Origin: Opitutales bacterium
GTDB taxonomy: Bacteria > Verrucomicrobiota > Verrucomicrobiia > Opitutales > PNEW01
Direction: 5' to 3'
Length of the DNA stretch: 32,000 bases
NCBI GenBank assembly: GCA_965219535.1
Contig: CBDCNV010000001.1
Location: 1,020,001-1,052,000 of the forward strand
Positions 3,545-29,455 of this stretch are shown here, piece after piece; positions within the stretch are counted from its first letter, which is position 1; each line of letters begins with the position of its first letter. The position numbers and the translations under genes are program-made. The notes beneath the pieces are model-generated. The model had not been told where the DNA came from, did no database searches, and saw nothing but the letters and a program-made list of their open reading frames with translations.

Positions 3545-5094
3545 CCTTTTACCCTATTAAGTGATTTAGCTTTGGCCGATATCCTTTGACGGCGTTGTCG
3601 ATTATAGGTCGGTTCCTCAGGTTTTTCTCGATTATCTACAATTTTTTCTTCTTTGAGTGCTTGGCCGACTTTATGCAGTTTACGGATACCTTCCGCTGAG
3701 TGAAATATTATGCGGTTGGGCCTTATCTCGGTATCTTTAATAAACCGGGCGTTAATTTCGTTAATCAATGCTTTGTTATCAGTAGAACCCCGTTTACTGA
3801 CGTGAAGAATCAGTTCGTCTACTTCCAATGGATCATCGTTTACTTTTCGAAGTTCAAGTTGCCACGCGCCGACAGGTTCAATGTTATCTAGAAGATATTC
3901 CAAAACATTGAAATTTACTAGTGTGCCTTTGATTTTTTGAAGTTGCATGGAACGCACATCTGAAACACGTGAGATTTTTCCCATTAATCGCGGTAATTGA
4001 CGGCTGCAATGAGGACATGGCTCGTAGGTAATCCCGCCATCTATGAAATCACCGGTGCGATAACGAAGGATAACCGTGCCCCGAGAATTTAAAGGAGTGA
4101 AAACTATTTCACCACCCTCACCATCGGGAAGCACCTCTCCTGTCTCGGGATTGATAATTTCTACAATGCCCATATCAGGATACAAGTGGTAACCGGGTGA
4201 AAGCTCATCACGATGGAAGGGACATTCTACCCAGGCCATTCTAGATTCCGTGAACGCATAGGTGGCTACTACTGACACCGCTGGCGACCCCAGTGTGGCA
4301 CATAAATCTGACAGCTTGCGACGTGTCCCAGTAACGACCTTTTCTCCGCCGAGAATTATAAGTCGTAGATTCTCGAAATGTTCACCTTCTTCGACCGCTT
4401 GATTTAGCATGTGATAAACAAAAGTTGGCATTCCAATTAGAACCGTGGGTTTAATTTTTTTGATGAGCTGAATACTGCCTTCGGTACCCATCACTTTCCC
4501 CCCTCCTGATCCAAGGCAGAATAGGTTTTTTTCAATAGCTCCGTGGTAGACTTGCCAATAAGCTAAGTGCGGTGCATAGGGAAACACGTTGAGGATACGG
4601 TCTTCCTTTTCCGCCTGCGCAATTTCAACAATTCTAGCACCACTCACAGCTAAATTGCGAAGATCATGTTGTGTGTAAAGGAAGGGGATGGGTTCTGTAG
4701 ACCGCCCCGTGGTACTGGTCATGAAGATCGGCCGATACTCGCGCTCCAATTCCTCTTTTACACGGGCCTTCCCTCGCATCAGTGCGCGAAGAAATACTTC
4801 CGGTTGTCGGGCGAGTAATTGGGAATCAGGAATGAGAATAAAGTCCCGAATCTTGCTTGTATTTTCCGGTGTGGACAACAGGTCTTCCTTGCTTGTAAAG
4901 GGGAGTCTCTCTAAATCCTCCACCGTCCGGATGTCATTCACCTCAATTTTATGGTCATGAAATAGCTGGCCGTAATGCTTTGAAAAGGGGAGAACCTTTC
5001 GGCGTAAAAAATGATTAAGGACCTTCCCTTGATGAGAGAGAATAGATCTTTTATCAAGGGCGTCCCAGTTTCTAGTTATAATTGATGTTTTCAT
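3541..5094 (-). CDS. Adenylate-forming acyl-CoA ligase, phenylacetate-CoA ligase / coenzyme F390 synthetase-like (ANL superfamily)
   Basis: 517-aa ORF with a degenerate P-loop-like TSTTGRSTEP and the conserved YRTGD (RYRTGDFIDG). Size and layout fit the PaaK-like family rather than FadD. It overlaps the upstream gene by 23 nt. Confidence 0.75.
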   Translation of the reverse strand: MKTSIITRNWDALDKRSILSHQGKVLNHFLRRKVLPFSKHYGQLFHDHKIEVNDIRTVEDLERLPFTSKEDLLSTPENTSKIRDFILIPDSQLLARQPEVFLRALMRGKARVKEELEREYRPIFMTSTTGRSTEPIPFLYTQHDLRNLAVSGARIVEIAQAEKEDRILNVFPYAPHLAYWQVYHGAIEKNLFCLGSGGGKVMGTEGSIQLIKKIKPTVLIGMPTFVYHMLNQAVEEGEHFENLRLIILGGEKVVTGTRRKLSDLCATLGSPAVSVVATYAFTESRMAWVECPFHRDELSPGYHLYPDMGIVEIINPETGEVLPDGEGGEIVFTPLNSRGTVILRYRTGDFIDGGITYEPCPHCSRQLPRLMGKISRVSDVRSMQLQKIKGTLVNFNVLEYLLDNIEPVGAWQLELRKVNDDPLEVDELILHVSKRGSTDNKALINEINARFIKDTEIRPNRIIFHSAEGIRKLHKVGQALKEEKIVDNREKPEEPTYNRQRRQRISAKAKSLNRVKG

Positions 5095-6859
5095 TTACTT
5101 CGACCTTTCGATTTAGAAGTGAACAGATCTTATCCAGCTGTCTTTCCGCTTCCTGACGTCCACAAGCTATGTATTTGCCGGGTTTATTATATTCATACCA
5201 TTGGGATTCACAGGTTATGGGCTGCAATACAACGTCTGCCCGTAATATATCACGCTCAACAATATGGATTTGACCGCCTTCCATGCTTCGCATCACCGTG
5301 TCCATGATATTTCCTTCCGCGAAGTAGTTTAGGTGCTTGTTTAGTAGCCGGAATAGACCTTTAAAGAAGTTACGATTACCGTTGTTTTTATAAGTTGAAG
5401 CGCACTCCCGCATGTAGCTGGGAGATAGAACCGTGCTCACAGCAATAATATTCTCGATCCCCATCTCTTCCAAGACGTCAACGGGTAGAGGGTTGGTGAC
5501 ACCTCCATCAATGTAAGTTTCTCCATTGATCTCCATGGGAACAAAGACACCCGGAATGGTACAACTGGCACGCACAGCAGAGACGACATCTCCCTCAGAA
5601 AACACGTCGGGGTCCATCGTGTTTATATTCGATGCGACGATCCGGAGTGGGATGGATAAGTCGGCGAAACGCGCATAACCCAATGCCCGCCTCAGTCTGT
5701 CCTTAATTTTTCTTCCGAGGAAAAAGGCGCGCCGTGGTGGTAAGACGAAATCGAGGAGTTCGAGTAATCCTAATCGTTTTTCAAGTCCCCGAGAAAGTCT
5801 TTCCATGTCTCGACCATTATATCCGTATGCCCAATGGGCGGCGACATAGGCACCCATGCTCGAAGCGGCAACAACGTCGATATCGATACCGTTCTCTTCA
5901 AGTACCTGGATGACACCGATGTGTGCCAGACCTTTGGCGCTTCCCGGGGAGAGTGCGAGACCAATACGGCAACGCCCGATCTCACGGGCAATACGGCGGA
6001 ACTGCGCGTTGTAGCGTCGTTCCACTTCGCGATCATAGTCGGGCCCTTCAGGTATATTTAGATCGGTAGGCAGGGTGCGAATAACACTGCTTAACGGCAT
6101 ACCGATTTTGTTATTGATGAATTGCAGGTTGTGAGGGGACTCTCCCTTTTCCAGGATAAGTAAAGGTTTAATTTTCCGGGTATCCTTGGCGAAACGATTA
6201 CTCACTTCGCGGATCAATAGATTTATCGTGTAGAAGTCCCTCGTTCTTTGACTTAATGCGATATAAATATTTTCGAAGTGAATCGCACACTCGAACAAGG
6301 TTCGCCGAATCCTATCACCTGCGAAGTAGAGGAGAACAAAGGAGTAAGACTTATAGCAGGTCTCAAGAAAGGGAAGAAGAAGAGAGAAGGCCTTATGGTC
6401 ATCTCCTAAATTAATCTTGAGCTTAAGATAGGGGATCTCCTTTTCTGATTTTATATAACTATTACCGTTCGTATAGCCGTTGACCGCAGGTATCTGATTA
6501 CCCAAATCAGCCAAGTTGTAATCTCCTCCTTCTTCGCTGAATTCAATTAACAAAACTTTACGAAAAGTTTCTTCGTAAAGAAAATGACAAAGCTTTGTTC
6601 GGATTTCTTCATTAAGCAATTGCTTTGCCTGATCGACGAAAACTACGGTGTTCTTTTTACTGTCTTTGAAGGTATCTTTTTTGAATTCTACATTAAGTGA
6701 TCGATTGCCAGAGTCATGCTCAAGAGACTTGACCAGCTTTTCATTGTCGATCAGCAGTTGACGCAGGCGATTGCCCGGTATTCGCAGCACCCGTGATGTT
6801 GCTATAAATAAAGGATGTGACTCAAGATTCTGGATGAAATTTTTCACTGAATTAGTCAA
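5072..6859 (-). CDS. Patatin-like phospholipase domain protein with an unrecognised ~300-aa N-terminal domain
   Basis: 595-aa ORF whose C-terminal half carries patatin features: oxyanion region LALSPGSAKGLAHIGV, nucleophile elbow ASSMG, and catalytic Asp in YIDGGVTNPLP. I recognise no motif in the N-terminal ~300 aa. The annotated start is TTG and is uncertain. Confidence 0.8.
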   Translation of the reverse strand: MTNSVKNFIQNLESHPLFIATSRVLRIPGNRLRQLLIDNEKLVKSLEHDSGNRSLNVEFKKDTFKDSKKNTVVFVDQAKQLLNEEIRTKLCHFLYEETFRKVLLIEFSEEGGDYNLADLGNQIPAVNGYTNGNSYIKSEKEIPYLKLKINLGDDHKAFSLLLPFLETCYKSYSFVLLYFAGDRIRRTLFECAIHFENIYIALSQRTRDFYTINLLIREVSNRFAKDTRKIKPLLILEKGESPHNLQFINNKIGMPLSSVIRTLPTDLNIPEGPDYDREVERRYNAQFRRIAREIGRCRIGLALSPGSAKGLAHIGVIQVLEENGIDIDVVAASSMGAYVAAHWAYGYNGRDMERLSRGLEKRLGLLELLDFVLPPRRAFFLGRKIKDRLRRALGYARFADLSIPLRIVASNINTMDPDVFSEGDVVSAVRASCTIPGVFVPMEINGETYIDGGVTNPLPVDVLEEMGIENIIAVSTVLSPSYMRECASTYKNNGNRNFFKGLFRLLNKHLNYFAEGNIMDTVMRSMEGGQIHIVERDILRADVVLQPITCESQWYEYNKPGKYIACGRQEAERQLDKICSLLNRKVEVNENINYN

Positions 6860-14967: not shown

Positions 14968-15072
14968 GGTGGAGCGGGCTGCCTGCCAACCATAGCCTTG
15001 GCGAAGGTTGGTCCCTGGCACGCTTCTTTACTTACTACACTCTTCAACGCGGTAGGGACACCGCGTTCCACC
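14968..15072. repeat. GC-rich structured or palindromic element (REP/MITE-like, or an unknown ncRNA)
   Basis: GGTGG (14968-14972) can pair with CCACC (15068-15072). Internal stems are CCAACC/GGTTGG (14986-14991 / 15006-15011) and a perfect 8-bp hairpin AACGCGGT-AGGGAC-ACCGCGTT (15046-15067). It lies in a convergent intergenic spacer. Confidence 0.35.
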
Positions 15073-15083
15073 ATTATATTATA

Positions 15084-15110
15084 AGGCGTTTATGCCTTCA
15101 ACATACGTAA
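15084..15110 (+). repeat. Left terminal inverted repeat AGGCGTTTATGCCTTCAACATACGTAA
   Basis: A hand alignment to the reverse complement of 18264-18290 (AGGCGTATGTACCTTCAGCATACGTAA) gives 23/27 matches. Confidence 0.6.
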
Positions 15111-15205
15111 CGAAAAATGAATAAAATTAATACTGATAAGAAATTATTAAAAGAAGAAGTGAACAAATATACTAAATGTCTAAAAGCTTATCTGGAAGCA
15201 TTAGG

Positions 15206-15472
15206 TTATTCAGTAAATTGTGATAAAGCTGAAAGATGATCTTCAATTGAAGTTTCAAAACCTTTTAGATAGTCTACATTGGTAGAAGGAGATTTGCGTT
15301 TAAAGGTTTTATTGTTATCAATCCAGTCACCTTTAAACAAATCTAAATTATTGTTTTTTGATTCTTTAATAAGAGTTAAAGCTAGAAAATTCAATATGGA
15401 TTGAGTTCCTTCAAGCTGGCCTTTTAAATAGTTCAGTTCTGATCTTGTGTTCTTGTCCTCTATATATTCCAT
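15206..15472 (-). CDS. Hypothetical 88-aa protein (island cargo)
   Basis: ORF with an AGGA 6 nt upstream of the ATG. It is divergent from the 2-TM gene. No recognisable motif. Confidence 0.5.
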   Translation of the reverse strand: MEYIEDKNTRSELNYLKGQLEGTQSILNFLALTLIKESKNNNLDLFKGDWIDNNKTFKRKSPSTNVDYLKGFETSIEDHLSALSQFTE

Positions 15473-15596
15473 GGTTTATCCTTTGTTTATTGAAGTAGGG
15501 TTTGATACACTAAATAATTCTGATCAAATAAACCTCTAATAGTCTATATTATTTATAAATACAGACTTGGAATTGAATAATTATTTTGAATTTTAC

Positions 15597-15625
15597 TTGA
15601 CCGTCCTTCCTTCTATTCTTATATT
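15597..15625 (+). promoter_or_regulatory. Sigma70-like promoter TTGACC-17 nt-TATATT, predicted to give a leaderless mRNA
   Basis: The -35 is at 15597-15602 and the -10 at 15620-15625. The ATG at 15631 lies only 5 nt after the -10 hexamer. Confidence 0.5.
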
Positions 15626-15630
15626 ATGGT

Positions 15631-16140
15631 ATGATTAATCAAATAAGTAAAGTTTCCAGAAACAGGGCGTGGCTTGGACTTTTAGATACTAAAAGGGAGG
15701 CTAGGTATTTTACTTTGTTATCAGATAATATGCGGAAAAAAGATTTGGGATTTTCTGGTATTATATCTATTGGGGCTTTTTTTACTTCTGTATTAATATT
15801 ATCTGAGTTATCAGTTAATATAGGGGCTTGGATAAGTGTGGCGGTAACTGCGTTTGCAGGATGGGGAATTGTTCTTAAGTATTCTTACAAATCTGCTATA
15901 GCTTCTTCATTATCTAATAAATGTTTTGATTTAGCTCTTGATTGGCAACGATTGTGGGAGAATATTGATAATTTGGATAATGATAAAGCCATTTCAAAAA
16001 TTGAAGAATTAGAAAAAAAGGCATTTGAAATAACAGAATGTTCACCACGTGATCTTGGCCATAAAGAAAAACTTAATATAAAATCTGCTGAATATGTTTA
16101 TGCCACTATTTGTCACGAATACCCAAATGTTTCTCTATAA
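15631..16140 (+). CDS. Two-TM membrane protein with SLATT-like architecture (hypothetical)
   Basis: 169 aa. The layout is a basic N-terminal helix (RNRAWLGLLDTKREARYF), two adjacent hydrophobic helices (GFSGIISIGAFFTSVLILSEL; IGAWISVAVTAFAGWGIVL), then an ~85-aa helical acidic tail. A strong promoter lies directly upstream. Confidence 0.7.
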   Translation: MINQISKVSRNRAWLGLLDTKREARYFTLLSDNMRKKDLGFSGIISIGAFFTSVLILSELSVNIGAWISVAVTAFAGWGIVLKYSYKSAIASSLSNKCFDLALDWQRLWENIDNLDNDKAISKIEELEKKAFEITECSPRDLGHKEKLNIKSAEYVYATICHEYPNVSL

Positions 16141-16150
16141 TTTTTGATTT

Positions 16151-16297
16151 ATGGATGAAGAAGAATCATTTGTTACTAATGAGCCAAGGTCATTGCCTAG
16201 ACCACCATATCCACCGCCACCGCCACCGCCACCGCCTGATCCACCACCTGATCCACCGCCTGATCCACCACCACCGCCTGATAAAGATAAATCTTAG
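16151..16297 (+). CDS. Possible 48-aa poly-proline mini-ORF (MDEEESFVTNEPRSLPRPPYPPPPPPPPPDPPPDPPPDPPPPPDKDKS)
   Basis: ATG lies 10 nt after the upstream stop. The frame is open through the CCACCGCC(TGAT) repeat tract. It is below the 60-aa cut-off of the ORF track. No RBS is visible. Confidence 0.3.
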   Translation: MDEEESFVTNEPRSLPRPPYPPPPPPPPPDPPPDPPPDPPPPPDKDKS

Positions 16298-16497
16298 ATA
16301 TAAAATATCTGCATGAGTCTTGACATAGATTCATCAGATTTTCGTTTAACATTAGATCAAAAAATAATCACCTAAAAACGCAATGAACCTTAAAGAAGCT
16401 AACACGCCAAAGAAGCTCAATCAGTTTATACAGGAACGTAAAAAGGAGCGTAAATACGTTAAAGGTGATAAGGATAAATTCGACCGTACCTTAAATT

Positions 16498-17367
16498 CTA
16501 TGATGAATTTACCGGAAAAGTCGAAATCAAAGCAGGAAACATCCGCTCAGGGTTCTTCCTGAAGTTGTAACGATATTCAAATTCCTTTGTATACTTGTTT
16601 AAATGCTTAGGTGATACATGGACATGGGTTCCTGTAATACTGCTTTTTAAGCGTGACCAGTAGCCTTCTAGGCTATTCACATGTATATCACCGCGTGCAT
16701 ATTCTTTAGCACCATGCTCTACTGTCTTATGTGTATATCCTTTCTTGGAAAGACCTTTATAGGCATACCATTCGTCAGTGCTTATAGTGCTTCCTTTTTC
16801 AACTTTCTTTAAAATTTCAGGTTCGATAGTTCTAGTTTTAGCGTCAGGTACAACCTTAGTAGCTATCTGTCCGCTACGTTCAGCTAATCCAAATATAACA
16901 GTCTTACCTTCTGCTCCGCGTCCACGTTTGCCCTTGTGCTTACCGCCTACATAGGTTTCGTCAGCTTCAATATGACCAGAAAAAACTTGGTTTCCATTTA
17001 TCAGAGACATGTGCTTACGGATCTGATGCCCCATCCGCCAAGCACATTTATAAGTAACCCCTAATTGCCTTTCTAGTTCTTTAGCTGGCACACCATGACG
17101 TGATGTAGTGAATAAGTAAATGGCATAGAACCATAGCCTAAGAGGTGTTCGTGATTTTTCAAATATGGTGCCAACCATAGGGTGAATATGATGCCCGCAC
17201 CATTGGCATGAGTATGCTTTTTCAGATTTTATTTTATACCAATTTGACTTCCTGTTACACTTTGGGCATGTGTGATCGTGTTCATAACGAGCATTAAATA
17301 AGTGGTCTAAGCAAGTATCGTCATCTGGAAATTTTTTGAAGAACTGGGTAATTGTTATCTTATTCAT
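16498..17367 (-). CDS. IS1595-family (ISXO2-like) DDE transposase with N-terminal zinc ribbon
   Basis: It has the zinc ribbon CPKCN...CQWCGH and DDE residues in EADETYVGG, STDEWYAYKG and NSLEGYWSRLK. Start MNKITITQFFKKFPDDD at 17367 is preferred over 17379, which falls inside the predicted -10 box. Confidence 0.92.
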   Translation of the reverse strand: MNKITITQFFKKFPDDDTCLDHLFNARYEHDHTCPKCNRKSNWYKIKSEKAYSCQWCGHHIHPMVGTIFEKSRTPLRLWFYAIYLFTTSRHGVPAKELERQLGVTYKCAWRMGHQIRKHMSLINGNQVFSGHIEADETYVGGKHKGKRGRGAEGKTVIFGLAERSGQIATKVVPDAKTRTIEPEILKKVEKGSTISTDEWYAYKGLSKKGYTHKTVEHGAKEYARGDIHVNSLEGYWSRLKSSITGTHVHVSPKHLNKYTKEFEYRYNFRKNPERMFPALISTFPVNSS

Positions 17368-17389
17368 GCCTATAAACATACACCATATT

Positions 17390-17413
17390 TTACGTATGTC
17401 AAGAGCAATAAAT
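17390..17413 (-). repeat. Internal degenerate third copy of the island end sequence (candidate transposase-proximal IR)
   Basis: The reverse complement ATTTATTGCTCTTGACATACGTAA aligns to the left IR GTTTATGCCTTCAACATACGTAA with about 18/23 matches and one gap. It contains the TTGACA -35 of the transposase promoter. Confidence 0.45.
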
Positions 17414-17439
17414 TAAATATTTTAAAAAAAATAATTTAG

Positions 17440-17468
17440 TTGACAGAATTAATTTTTGTATTAATACT
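17440..17468 (+). promoter_or_regulatory. Sigma70-like promoter TTGACA-16/17 nt-TAATAC(T)
   Basis: The consensus -35 is at 17440-17445 and an A/T-rich -10 at 17462-17468. It points toward the NYN gene. Confidence 0.45.
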
Positions 17469-17515
17469 TATTTCTAATAACAATACCGTTACGCCCGTAG
17501 GCGGGCACAAAATAT

Positions 17516-17543
17516 GCCCCCATTAATTTGGGGGCTTTTTTTT
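17516..17543 (+). terminator. Rho-independent terminator (GCCCCCA-TTAATT-TGGGGGC followed by T8)
   Basis: Perfect 7-bp GC stem (17516-17522 / 17529-17535), a 6-nt loop, and eight T residues (17536-17543) ending 1 nt before the NYN ATG. Confidence 0.8.
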
Positions 17544-17544
17544 A

Positions 17545-18210
17545 ATGATTAACCAAATAAAGCTAGCAATTTTGATTGATGGAGCGTGGTTTCATAAAGC
17601 AATCCAGCACGCAACAACGTTTAAAAAACGTGATATTACGTGTGAAATGATCTACGAAAACACTAAGAAAATAATTAACGATGATGAAGCTTTATACCGT
17701 ATATTTTATTACAATGCGATTCCTTATGACAAACAAAACGAAATAAATCCTATATCAGGAGAGAGAATAAACTTTGGTAATACAAGCCTTGCTAACGCCA
17801 TGAGAAAATTCCATGAGGATATGAATTGTAAGGCTCAAGTAGCACTTCGTTTGGGCACATTAGCAAAAAAGGGATGGGTTATTTGCCAATCGAAACAGGA
17901 TGAAATGATAGAAAATCATAAGGAATCTATGGAGATTTCCGCAAAAGATATGCATATGGTATTTGGTCAAAAAGGTGTTGATATGCGTATAGGTCTTGAT
18001 GTTGCTAGTTTAACTTTTAAAAGGCTTGTTGATAGAATAGTTATTATCTCTGGTGATACAGATTTTATTCCTGCAATGAAATTAGCAAGGAGAGAAGGTG
18101 TTCAGATAGTATCTGTTCAAATTGCTAATTATCATAAATTACCCAAAAGTATTGTTCATGATTCTGACTTTATTCGTGTTCTTACTATAGAAAAGCAGAT
18201 ATCTACATAA
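17545..18210 (+). CDS. NYN / LabA-like (PIN-related) predicted ribonuclease domain protein
   Basis: 221 aa with the motifs LAILIDGAWF, GQKGVDMRIGLDVASL and IISGDTDFIPAMKLARREG, which are characteristic of the NYN/LabA family. Confidence 0.85.
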   Translation: MINQIKLAILIDGAWFHKAIQHATTFKKRDITCEMIYENTKKIINDDEALYRIFYYNAIPYDKQNEINPISGERINFGNTSLANAMRKFHEDMNCKAQVALRLGTLAKKGWVICQSKQDEMIENHKESMEISAKDMHMVFGQKGVDMRIGLDVASLTFKRLVDRIVIISGDTDFIPAMKLARREGVQIVSVQIANYHKLPKSIVHDSDFIRVLTIEKQIST

Positions 18211-18263
18211 AAAGCGTAACGGAATCCTTATATATTCTGATATATATATTAAGGTGTATGTTT

Positions 18264-18290
18264 TTACGTATGCTGAAGGTACATACGCCT
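18264..18290 (-). repeat. Right terminal inverted repeat (plus strand TTACGTATGCTGAAGGTACATACGCCT)
   Basis: Partner of 15084-15110, with 23/27 identity by hand alignment. Confidence 0.6.
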
Positions 18291-18440
18291 ATTATAATAA
18301 ACAACTGAAGGGACGAAGACGATGACGCAGACGAAGACGAAGATTAATCCTTATCATCATACCCATTGCTCAAACAATGGGTTAAATATGTCACTCCCCT
18401 CCAGGGTGAAACATCTCGATTATTTAAGGGACGATGATAA

Positions 18441-18866
18441 TCAATCTATGAGGTCGACTCTCCTGGCATGTCTGCCGCCATCGAAAGGAACATCCAACCA
18501 TTCATTCACTATTTCGAGGGCGGTCTCTTCTGAGATCATACGTTGCCCGAGAGATAACATATTCGCGTCGTTGTGGGCACGACTTAGGTTGGCCGTTTCT
18601 ACATTCCAGCAGAGTGCGCAACGAATACCTTTAACTTTATTGGCACACATCGCTTCACCATTACCTGATCCCCCCAGAACAATGCCGCGTTCGCATTCCC
18701 CTCCAGCGACGGATTCAGCTGCGGGTCTAATGAAAAGGGGATAATCGACTGATTCATTGTTATTCGTTCCAAAGTCTTTTACGGTGTGCCCTTTGTCTAT
18801 CAAGATTGCCTTGATTGCTTCTTTATATTCAAAACCGGCATGATCTGTTCCTAAGGCGATATTCAT
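18441..18866 (-). CDS. rpiB: Ribose-5-phosphate isomerase B
   Basis: 141 aa with the motifs LGTDHAGFEYK, GIVLGGSGNGEAMCANK and GGRHARRV, as in the RpiB/LacAB family. Confidence 0.92.
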   Translation of the reverse strand: MNIALGTDHAGFEYKEAIKAILIDKGHTVKDFGTNNNESVDYPLFIRPAAESVAGGECERGIVLGGSGNGEAMCANKVKGIRCALCWNVETANLSRAHNDANMLSLGQRMISEETALEIVNEWLDVPFDGGRHARRVDLID

Positions 18867-28720: not shown

Positions 28721-29455
28721 GGGTCATGCCTAGAATAGACACATATCAGATGTGTAAGCTATTCTAGACAAATGAGAAATAAGTATGTACATCGTTCAAA
28801 AATTTCTGAGGCCAAATTTCGGCAGTTAGTAAAGTGTTTTAGCTTGGATATGGAAGCGTTGAAGATAGCCCAATTGACAGGATTGAATCGTAACACGGTC
28901 AACCGTTATTTGCGCTTGTTGCGGGAGCGTTTGTTGCAGCAATGTGCGCAGGCCTCGCCTTTTAGGGGGTCGGTGGAAATGGATGAGTCCTACTTTGGAG
29001 GCAAAAGAATTCCAGGGCAAAGAGGTCGGGGTGCATTCAAGAAAGTGCCCGTCTTCGGGTTGCTCAAGCGTAATGGGAAAGTCTATACCCAGGTTGTACG
29101 CAACGTCTCCAGAGCCGCTCTGCATGCGGTGATCCAAGGGAGAGTTACTTTTGACAGTGTGCTTTATTCTGACGGGTGGCGTGCTTACAACGGCCTCGTG
29201 GATCTGGGCTATAAGAAGCATTACCGTGTCAATCACAACGACAACGAGTTTGCCCAGGGACACTCCCACATTAACGGGATTGAATCTTTTTGGGCTTTTG
29301 CTAAACTTCGATTGGCTAAGTTCAAAGGTCTTTCTCGTAGGACCTTCCAACTGCACCTCAAAGAAACTGAATATCGCTTTAACCATCGTCATCAAAACCT
29401 CCATCGTAACATCCTTAATATGTGCTTAAGATACCCTCTGTTCTAGGCATGACCC
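28721..29455 (+). mobile_element. Complete 735-bp IS1595-family insertion sequence (IS1016-like size class)
   Basis: Perfect 15-bp terminal IRs GGGTCATGCCTAGAA (28721-28735) and TTCTAGGCATGACCC (29441-29455). There is an 8-bp flanking duplication and a single DDE transposase ORF whose stop codon lies inside the right IR. Confidence 0.88.
28772..29446 (+). CDS. IS1595-family DDE transposase (short form with HTH N-terminus, no zinc ribbon)
   Basis: 224 aa with DDE residues in VEMDESYFGG, LYSDGWRAYNG and HINGIESFWAFAK, and an HTH-like LTGLNRNTVNRYLR. Confidence 0.92.
   Translation: MRNKYVHRSKISEAKFRQLVKCFSLDMEALKIAQLTGLNRNTVNRYLRLLRERLLQQCAQASPFRGSVEMDESYFGGKRIPGQRGRGAFKKVPVFGLLKRNGKVYTQVVRNVSRAALHAVIQGRVTFDSVLYSDGWRAYNGLVDLGYKKHYRVNHNDNEFAQGHSHINGIESFWAFAKLRLAKFKGLSRRTFQLHLKETEYRFNHRHQNLHRNILNMCLRYPLF

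Follow-up and report, generated by a model that had tools for sequence, protein, structure and literature searches.

The derivatives of the IS1595 family of insertion sequences (IS) that carry passenger genes, and that make up groups in ISfinder, are reported in a range of 1.5-4.7 kb, and the ISfinder value for the direct target duplication of the family is 8 bp. Passenger modules of the toxin-antitoxin kind are carried by Tn3-family transposons. Among regulatory leaders, attenuators and antiterminators are known, and the nut site of phage lambda consists of boxA followed by the boxB hairpin. The transporter IS (tIS), that is, an IS that carries passengers, was first defined for the IS1595 family (Siguier, Gagnevin and Chandler 2009, according to the passages on it in PMC3129680 and PMC7986276). 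Here we examined a stretch of 32,000 nucleotides from an Opitutales bacterium (contig CBDCNV010000001.1, positions 1,020,001 to 1,052,000), referred to as the window and numbered from its first letter. Positions 15085-18289 of the window very probably constitute a 3205-bp IS1595-family tIS, recently inserted and flanked by an 8-bp duplication, which has a relic of its near end, a working end further out, and two cargo slots: slot B, at 15111-16382, and slot A, between the outer end and the relic.

Empty sites and the limits of the mobile unit

Empty sites were located by exact look-up of the protein encoded by rpiB, which led to two independent metagenome assemblies, L001 (ENA) and L002 (Logan). 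Both contain the same GNAT and rpiB genes as the window, separated by a spacer of only 361 bp from which the block is absent, and both are 100% identical to the window across 301 bp on each side of it. The empty site reads CCACCATTA-TATTATAA-TAAACAAC in the two assemblies, and the occupied site of the window reads ...ATTA-TATTATAA-[GGCGTTTATGCC...GGTACATACGCC]-TATTATAA-TAAAC. Since TATTATAA is single in L001 and L002 and present in two copies in the window, the target duplication is 8 bp and the mobile unit is 15085-18289 (3205 bp). It is clear that the element is a recent arrival in the AT-rich spacer that separates the GNAT gene from rpiB, which is convergent with it. The features of the insertion site are given below.

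15077-15084, no strand: left copy of the target-site duplication TATTATAA, of which L001/L002 have one copy and the window two
18290-18297, no strand: right copy of the target-site duplication TATTATAA, from the empty-site comparison
15085-15110, + strand: left terminal inverted repeat GGCGTTTATGCCTTCAACATACGTAA, the cargo-side end (right inverted repeat, IRR), with homologous ends in L003, L175 and L176
13892-14866, + strand: GNAT gene, left neighbour, convergent with rpiB
18441-18866, - strand: rpiB, right neighbour, convergent with the GNAT gene

A preliminary description of this DNA, made from the sequence letters alone, had asked for a GNAT-rpiB spacer without the insert and for conservation of the ends in other copies. 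Such a spacer exists in L001 and L002, and the repeats are kept in the other copies found. The description had also delimited a low-GC block, with a sharp drop in composition, by 27-bp inverted repeats. This was accurate on both counts: GC is 0.27-0.37 over approximately 15100-18300 compared with 0.44-0.50 in the flanks (G+C is 9/60 in the line 17400-17459), and the inverted repeats 15084-15110 and 18264-18290, with 23/27 matches, are sited at the breakpoints of the empty sites. The hexamer ATTATA, which it had seen abutting both ends, is present, but the real duplication is 8 bp and ATTATA forms only its inner six bases.

A hairpin of the GNAT-rpiB spacer, AACGCGGT-agggac-ACCGCGTT, sits immediately before the insertion point. 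Partial look-alikes of the spacer sequence (15018-15080 and 18303-18369) occur between genes in L003 (705-826) and L177 (8523-8553 and 8690-8727), and the sequence may be a lineage-specific intergenic repeat or terminator. That the target is a repeated element, like the repetitive extragenic palindromic (REP) sequences, was considered and dropped, the sequence being single-copy in the window and only partially similar in L003 and L177.

The transposase, the conserved small ORF and slot B

The transposase gene of the element occupies the following position.

16498-17379, - strand: IS1595-family DDE transposase, 293 aa, with Pfam and NCBIfam profile matches

The protein matched PF12762 (DDE_Tnp_IS1595) with 156.6 bits (cut-off 27), PF12760 (Zn_ribbon_IS1595) with 34.3 bits (cut-off 25.4) at its N terminus, and the NCBIfam profile NF033547 (transpos_IS1595) with 218 bits (cut-off 75). 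Residues D140, D202, E238, and K245 are invariant among 17 homologues (55-76% identity), and we take them to be the catalytic D, D, E/N of the IS1595 family with the K/R that follows about 7 residues on. The gene is full length, with both Zn ribbon and DDE domain; the preliminary description had called it intact. Its proposal of a passenger-carrying IS1595-family element likewise agrees with the profile matches, the terminal repeats, the 8-bp duplication, and the exact empty site. The element has the DDE domain, catalytic residues, terminal repeats, and 8-bp duplication that mark the family; as in a tIS, all 3205 bp, including the genes for the NYN and SLATT-like proteins described below and the other open reading frames (ORFs), are missing from the empty site. 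The nearest annotated relatives of the transposase bear only the name 'IS1595 family transposase'.

The promoter of the transposase gene has its -35 box, TTGACA, at 17402-17397 and its -10 box at 17380-17375, downstream of the first ATG. Some members of the transposase cluster are 289 aa long, and the true start is probably Met5 at 17367, which gives 289 aa. It was also observed that the -10 boxes of the SLATT-like and transposase genes end 5-8 nt ahead of the likely start codon (15620-15633 and 17365-17380, respectively). Such a spacing suggests that both mRNAs are leaderless.

Relatives of the element were collected by protein search, exact-protein context look-ups, a metagenome scan, and a search of annotated plasmids, and were delimited where an exact 8-bp direct repeat flanked inverted repeats with at least 17/24 matches. 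Under this rule, 37 further elements were delimited, with lengths of 1670-3552 bp, and with 757-2619 bp of DNA from the transposase stop codon to the far end. No minimal bare IS of about 1 kb was among the 37. Their duplications are 80% A+T, and the GC content of most of the elements is below that of their flanks. The repeat consensus of the clade is (G/C)G(G/C)nnTTATCCCCTTGACATACG(G/T). Relatives whose transposases are 51-77% identical have their transposase-proximal repeat at a distance of 47-93 bp upstream of the gene, with TTGACA in it; the transposase-adjacent repeat of distant relatives contains TTGACATACG. The layout of the clade is fixed: a proximal repeat with the -35 box comes first, then the transposase gene, a small ORF (about 55 aa) convergent with it, the hypervariable passenger genes (at least one), and the far repeat.

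The small ORF came from an all-against-all comparison of the ORFs that lie beyond the transposase gene. Its copy in the window is as follows.

16383-16562, + strand: conserved small ORF, 59 aa, convergent with the transposase gene, whose last 65 nt it overlaps

Members of the small-ORF family are about 50-64 aa long, run convergently with the transposase gene, and usually overlap its 3' end. They share the motif xLKEARKxxKLxxFIKEH..GDxxKFDxxLxxM and were found in 32 of the 33 delimited elements checked. No Pfam match was obtained for the family, and a PDB sequence search gave chance-level matches only. On plasmid NZ_CP083567 of Sulfitobacter sp. W027 (RefSeq; L178, approximately 3810-3980) the small ORF is intact and unannotated, in an element of 1670 bp, and it is probably missed routinely by annotation. 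It is a core gene of the clade that public records leave unannotated. The preliminary description had seen a weak fourth copy of the repeat core at 16454-16462. This is not an end, because it lies inside the 59-aa small ORF, where it encodes K-Y-V-K, and homology with the relatives continues across it, without a break, as far as about 16375-16382.

Immediately upstream of the small ORF, nearly every element has a different gene. None of 20 adjacent passenger proteins matched Pfam, and 19/23 passenger proteins had at least one predicted transmembrane (TM) helix in a crude hydropathy scan. In the window, slot B holds the following features.

15117-15239, + strand: 40-aa ORF, end-proximal cargo, starting 7 nt inside the left repeat
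15206-15472, - strand: 88-aa ORF, end-proximal cargo, overlapping the 40-aa ORF
15526-15601, no strand: 76-bp intergenic block with a palindrome (AGTCTATAT..ATACAGACT), overlapping the -35 box of the SLATT-like gene promoter
15631-16140, + strand: SLATT-like protein, 169 aa, with two TM helices; slot B cargo, its mRNA probably leaderless
16151-16297, + strand: proline-rich 48-aa ORF (PPYPPPPPPPPPDPPPDPPPDPPPPP), candidate coding, past the SLATT-like gene and ahead of the small ORF, on a tract of triplet repeats (CCACCG/CCTGAT)

The two end-proximal ORFs (15117-15472), either of which may be the expressed one, had no matches in Pfam, PADLOC, or NCBIfam; close relatives likewise have an ORF that begins just inside the cargo-side end. 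The 76-bp block is 88% identical to L003 6924-6999 despite unrelated flanking genes, and it is also contained in the L177 match described below. The promoter that it overlaps is TTGACC-17-TATATT (15597-15625).

For the 169-aa protein, the NCBIfam profile SLATT_4 gave E = 8e-4 and 19.3 bits, under the cut-off of 55, and Pfam gave no match. A word-based search found one close relative, and a full HMMER search found 210. When relatives were compared with the profiles, SLATT_4 matched 32/40 (best E 2.6e-8) and SLATT_1 23/40, and there were a few Pfam SLATT matches as well. TM helices were predicted at residues 38-56 and 64-82. The alignment-based AlphaFold2 (AF2) model, with a predicted local distance difference test score (pLDDT) of 93, is all-helical with a two-TM hairpin; a single-sequence model had a pLDDT of 49. 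The protein is best described as divergent and SLATT-like, as far as profiles and models can tell, which is short of a proven member of the family. As a side observation, the SLATT-like and NYN proteins both start with MINQI, and their genes share a 16-nt start with 15/16 identity.

Window 15501-16364 recurs at 89% identity in L177, where it adjoins a far-type repeat near a phage integrase gene, with no transposase gene. The proline-rich ORF is kept there (approximately 5415-5560) with an in-frame difference in repeat number; it could encode a ribosome-stalling peptide or be just a repeat. A second end of the L177 unit was not found. It may be noted that the SLATT-like module of L177 is flanked by a 27-bp direct repeat, ACGGAATTTCCTAGTTTAAGGCCTTAA (4351-4377 and 5624-5650), which is half of a palindromic hairpin and makes for an odd junction.

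A second element of the family lies elsewhere in the window.

28721-29455, between cysE and trxB: second IS1595-family element, 735 bp, with repeats GGGTCATGCCTAGAA.. (18/20) and an 8-bp duplication TTAATTAA

Its transposase has 224 aa and no Zn ribbon, and the protein cluster is recorded on 13 contigs. The resemblance noted earlier between the repeat cores of the two elements holds in so far as both belong to the IS1595 family; there is no closer tie, the 735-bp element representing a different subgroup.

The relic repeat, the outer end and the NYN module

The transposases of the window, L003, L175, and L176 form one 90% cluster. A core that is 91-94% identical is common to the four elements, from 16375 or 16382 to 17413 or 17431 of the window. 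Besides the transposase gene and its promoter the core includes the small ORF, and the cargo of the four elements is unrelated. At the right-hand side of this core the following features were recognized.

17389-17414, - strand: relic of the ancestral transposase-proximal repeat, with the inner part TTGACATACGTAA kept, supplying the -35 box, and the tip decayed
17440-17544, + strand: NYN promoter and leader, with promoter, CCGUUAC plus hairpin, and terminator
17545-18210, + strand: NYN (LabA/DUF88-type) predicted RNase, 221 aa, slot A cargo
18215-18289, - strand: outer end segment, with the repeat 18264-18289 (reverse complement GGCGTATGTACCTTCAGCATACGTAA) and about 50 bp of subterminal DNA that includes an AT-rich palindrome

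A simple account of such a core would be a plain IS of about 1 kb (roughly 16375-17417) within an older AT-rich island, the outer 27-bp repeats being due to chance or foreign. The 1039-bp core (16375-17413) is indeed the only long stretch common to L003, and an inner repeat copy stands at its edge. However, the empty sites lack all 3205 bp and have a single TATTATAA restored, the left edge of the core is without a repeat, and all 37 relatives have the duplication outside the outer repeats and the cargo between them. We therefore regard a plain IS as extremely improbable.

The preliminary description had proposed one left end and two right ends, the third end copy being degenerate, located upstream of the transposase gene, and containing its -35 box. 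The comparison upholds this. The sequence at the transposase promoter, ATTTATTGCTCTTGACATACGTAAA (17389-17414), is kept at the same distance from the gene, with its tip lost, in the window, L003, L175, and L176, and each of the four has an outer repeat in addition. The terminal bases of the inner copy match no functional tip and differ between elements. Since the proximal repeat of distant relatives holds the same position and the same TTGACA, the inner copy is the ancestral transposase-proximal repeat, the tip of which is gone in the subclade of at least 90% identity. It is best read as a kept promoter, and perhaps also serves as an autoregulatory site. Among the delimited relatives, no element bounded by the relic was seen. 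An inverted submotif between the two right-hand copies, noted earlier, is present as well (17374-17384 and 18253-18263).

Each of the four elements has its duplication next to the outer repeat, which lies beyond the relic by 58 bp in L003 and L176, 738 bp in L175, and 875 bp in the window. The sequence type of the outer repeat is that of the far, cargo-side end (..CTCAGCATACG) and not that of the near end (..CTTGACATACG); the L175 copy agrees with the far repeat at 26/26 positions. The outer 76-bp segment of the window is 88% identical to L175 4228-4303 and is joined to different cargo in each; the L175 segment truncates hicA. The 58-bp spacer of L003 and L176 bears no relation to the 50 bp of subterminal DNA in the window and L175. 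Slot A is empty in L003 and L176, holds a HicA/HicB-like pair in L175, and holds the NYN module in the window. Because the slot A pair of L175 is homologous to a HicAB-like pair in slot B of L176 (64% and 40% amino acid identity), modules evidently pass from one slot to the other. By this comparison the second, outer repeat is presumably the working end of the subclade, and the space outside the relic its second cargo slot.

Could both right-hand ends still be active, so that a nested element moves either as 15085-18289 or as approximately 15085-17417, leaving the NYN module behind? The inner copy keeps 10/10 inner repeat bases (TTACGTATGT) together with subterminal CATAC motifs, and L003 and L176 resemble forms without NYN. 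Yet its terminal 4-6 bases match no functional tip and differ between the window and L003, and the duplication is at the outer end in all four close relatives. L003 and L176 are not products of transposition from the relic end, because they retain the outer end 58 bp beyond it. We consider two active right-hand ends very unlikely.

As to the origin of slot A, the near end may have been inactivated and a solo, surrogate outer end of the far type recruited, with capture of host DNA (NYN) and later exchange of cargo by recombination. Among the origins considered this one fits best, and we put it forward as possible, with more doubt than conviction. The outer end is of the far-end type and in L175 identical to the far end; one 76-bp outer segment accompanies different cargo in the window and in L175, with hicA truncated; and the leader and NYN gene are elsewhere a self-contained, usually monocistronic module. 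On the other side, the outer end of L003 and L176 is only 58 bp out, behind the unrelated spacer already mentioned, and no donor locus was found. Because this spacing and the spacer differ, at least two events, or a deletion, are required. Derivation from two inverted copies followed by deletion was tried and dropped, because the orientation of hicAB in L175 does not fit it.

The 221-aa protein encoded in slot A scored 40.4 bits against Pfam NYN (PF01936; cut-off 24.2) and E = 4e-6 against the PADLOC NYN profile, and its residues D12, D146, D152, and D173 are invariant in 30 homologues. By these matches it is a bona fide NYN-domain protein and a predicted nuclease. Its relatives are found in neighbourhoods of restriction-modification or defence-like genes, beside transposase genes, on Campylobacter conjugative plasmids, and in phages. 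When annotated plasmid and phage collections were searched with the DNA, only the 132-nt conserved NYN core was found.

Upstream of the gene, a promoter-like site (TTGACA-17-AATACT, 17440-17468) is followed by CCGUUAC and the hairpin GCCCG-UAGG-CGGGC (17486-17506), in which a 5-bp stem carries a UAGG loop (17493-17506). A strong intrinsic terminator (17516-17543; fold z = -3.35) abuts the NYN start codon. The same arrangement precedes the closest NYN homologues (38-47% identical; Verrucomicrobiota, Kiritimatiellia, and similar groups), and the motif lies upstream of NYN genes in 11 other loci; it precedes such genes in L014-L021, L052, and L074. A 33-nt covariance model gave 12 matches of 31-48 bits, all 63-82 nt upstream of NYN genes; none was obtained in about 70 more distant NYN loci or in 469 kb of IS loci. 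In the stem 98% of cells pair, compared with at most 42% for shifted registers, and covariation is seen, with C-G, A-U, or G-C at one position of the stem and C-G or G-C at a second. No Rfam 15 family matched at the motif, either in 8 NYN loci or in 12 viral ones, the sole match to the window leader being a sub-threshold Phe_leader (24 bits, compared with 55), and a search of the literature for an RNA motif associated with NYN genes turned up nothing.

In its general form the motif is CCGYUAC plus the hairpin GCCNG-UAGG-CNGGC. When IMG/VR was scanned for an exact pattern, the motif was found in 20 viral contigs (L179-L198), of which about 8-9 continue to hairpin and NYN gene and about 11 have it at the head of other phage genes. 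Because of these non-NYN genes, the motif seems to be a leader signal in general use among the mobile elements of these hosts. Inspection by eye shows that several loci allow the 3' arm of the hairpin to pair with the 5' arm of the terminator instead, which suggests attenuation. Antitermination or attenuation by the NYN leader is the hypothesis that we favour from these sequence features.

The order of promoter, short structured RNA, strong terminator, and nuclease gene also mirrors the ToxIN layout. The leader RNA and NYN could accordingly be regarded as a type III-like toxin-antitoxin system, in which a small RNA neutralises the RNase and the terminator sets their ratio, and not as an RNase regulated for defence or housekeeping, and NYN relatives do occur in defence-like islands, on plasmids, and in phages. 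Such a system is made less likely by the absence of tandem RNA repeats from the leader, so that it differs from ToxIN in spite of the terminator and the nuclease gene. Moreover, with the hairpin motif heading non-NYN genes in about 11/20 viral contigs, a general regulatory site fits better. A toxin-antitoxin role for the leader is, in our view, unlikely.

Some further observations concern the surroundings of NYN genes. The NYN module of the window is bracketed by an exact 9-bp inverted repeat (17486-17494, CCGTTACGC; 18214-18222, GCGTAACGG), the left copy of which begins the leader motif; this bracketing was absent from 10 other NYN loci. In two Verrucomicrobiota loci (L015, 2759-3583; L019, 2969-3811) the leader and NYN gene stand directly downstream of an IS1-like transposase gene. 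That NYN is cargo of an IS there was considered and dropped, no enclosing inverted repeats having been found. In L074, four copies of the Acido-Lenti-1 small RNA of Rfam (729-773, 4689-4733, 4821-4865, and 4954-4998; two above the gathering score) lie around a type I restriction-modification locus and the NYN gene of a member of the Akkermansiaceae.

Proposed behaviour and comparison with known systems

According to our preferred reading, that of a tIS with a relic near end and two slots, the DDE transposase would bind the two outer repeats and mobilize the whole 3.2 kb as one unit. Binding of the transposase to the relic repeat at its own promoter may damp its expression, and so may convergent transcripts that start in the cargo operon, cross the small ORF, and enter the transposase gene at its 3' end. 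The SLATT-like membrane effector, the NYN RNase, and, in the relatives, HicAB would be addiction or defence-type genes that aid retention of the element.

Several points weigh against this reading. Empty and occupied sites cannot separate insertion from precise excision; in either case the element is mobile. The 32-kb window holds a single copy of the exact element, and no second one was seen. The match between its outer repeats is imperfect (23/27), the strict delimitation rule failed at about nine amply flanked loci, and in L175 the hicAB genes of slot A point outward. The SLATT assignment of the 169-aa protein scores below curated cut-offs, and a Foldseek search of the PDB with its model gave no match at E <= 0.001. 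Finally, transposition activity is a prediction, and the roles suggested for relic repeat, small ORF, and cargo are read from position and family resemblance.

A more far-reaching reading may be put forward, which we consider rather unlikely as a whole. This IS1595 clade would be a dedicated cassette shuttle, more than a collection of IS with chance passengers, whose transposase and small protein need or exploit a hypervariable slot for genes of membrane proteins, toxins, or defence, with end replacement adding a second slot. The small ORF would then encode a new protein with an accessory or regulatory part in transposition, and the NYN leader would be a new regulatory RNA site, acting through antitermination or attenuation, that is common to mobile elements and phages of bacteria of the Planctomycetota-Verrucomicrobiota-Chlamydiota (PVC) type.

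Passenger-carrying IS blur the line between IS and transposon and spread small defence, addiction, and membrane-effector genes. The element described here is a recent insertion for which the matching empty site is known. Its basic classification is ordinary, and none of the leads overturns current understanding. The more novel leads, which come from comparative evidence and deserve to be followed, are the small ORF, the universal hypervariable slot, the gain of a second slot through replacement of the near end, and an NYN leader motif outside Rfam. If confirmed, they would mean a small ORF overlooked by annotation, even on the plasmid of a cultured Sulfitobacter; a hypervariable passenger slot, filled mostly with membrane proteins, in all the delimited members; a second slot gained by end replacement, with the old end surviving as the transposase promoter; and an RNA leader motif, outside Rfam, ahead of both an NYN RNase and phage genes.

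How does the element compare with the systems described at the outset? It resembles an IS1595 tIS in having a transposase with PF12762 and Zn ribbon, short terminal repeats, an AT-rich 8-bp duplication, internal passengers, and a size within 1.5-4.7 kb. It differs from the tIS, as these are described, in that the transposase gene of the window is central with cargo on both sides, that the original near end persists behind the outer end as an internal promoter relic, that a small convergent ORF is conserved throughout the clade, and that every delimited member of the clade has a hypervariable passenger slot. Like the Tn3-family transposons, it is a DDE transposon with addiction-type genes near the transposition module, HicAB-like pairs being present in L175 and L176; unlike them, it has a transposase of an unrelated family, has no resolvase or res site, and is much smaller, and its cargo in the window is SLATT-like plus NYN and not a classical type II pair. 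The 89% identical SLATT-like module of L177, beside its far-type repeat, resembles a transposase-less remnant or cassette, whereas the element of the window is autonomous.

The cargo and its leader can be compared in the same way. Like the two-TM SLATT conflict effectors (SLATT_1/4; PF18181/PF18186), the 169-aa protein belongs to a group with profile matches for most of its relatives, and it resembles them in its length (about 165 aa) and in its predicted layout, with a helix at the N terminus, then a two-TM hairpin, then a helical C-terminal part. It differs from them in its sub-cut-off scores and in standing alone, with no SMODS or SLOG partner in the element. The NYN leader differs from lambda nut in that it has no sequence similarity to boxA/boxB and that no N-like protein was identified in its case; it is like lambda nut in that a linear motif, CCGYUAC, is followed by a 5-bp hairpin and then by an intrinsic terminator, and in that the motif heads other viral units as well.

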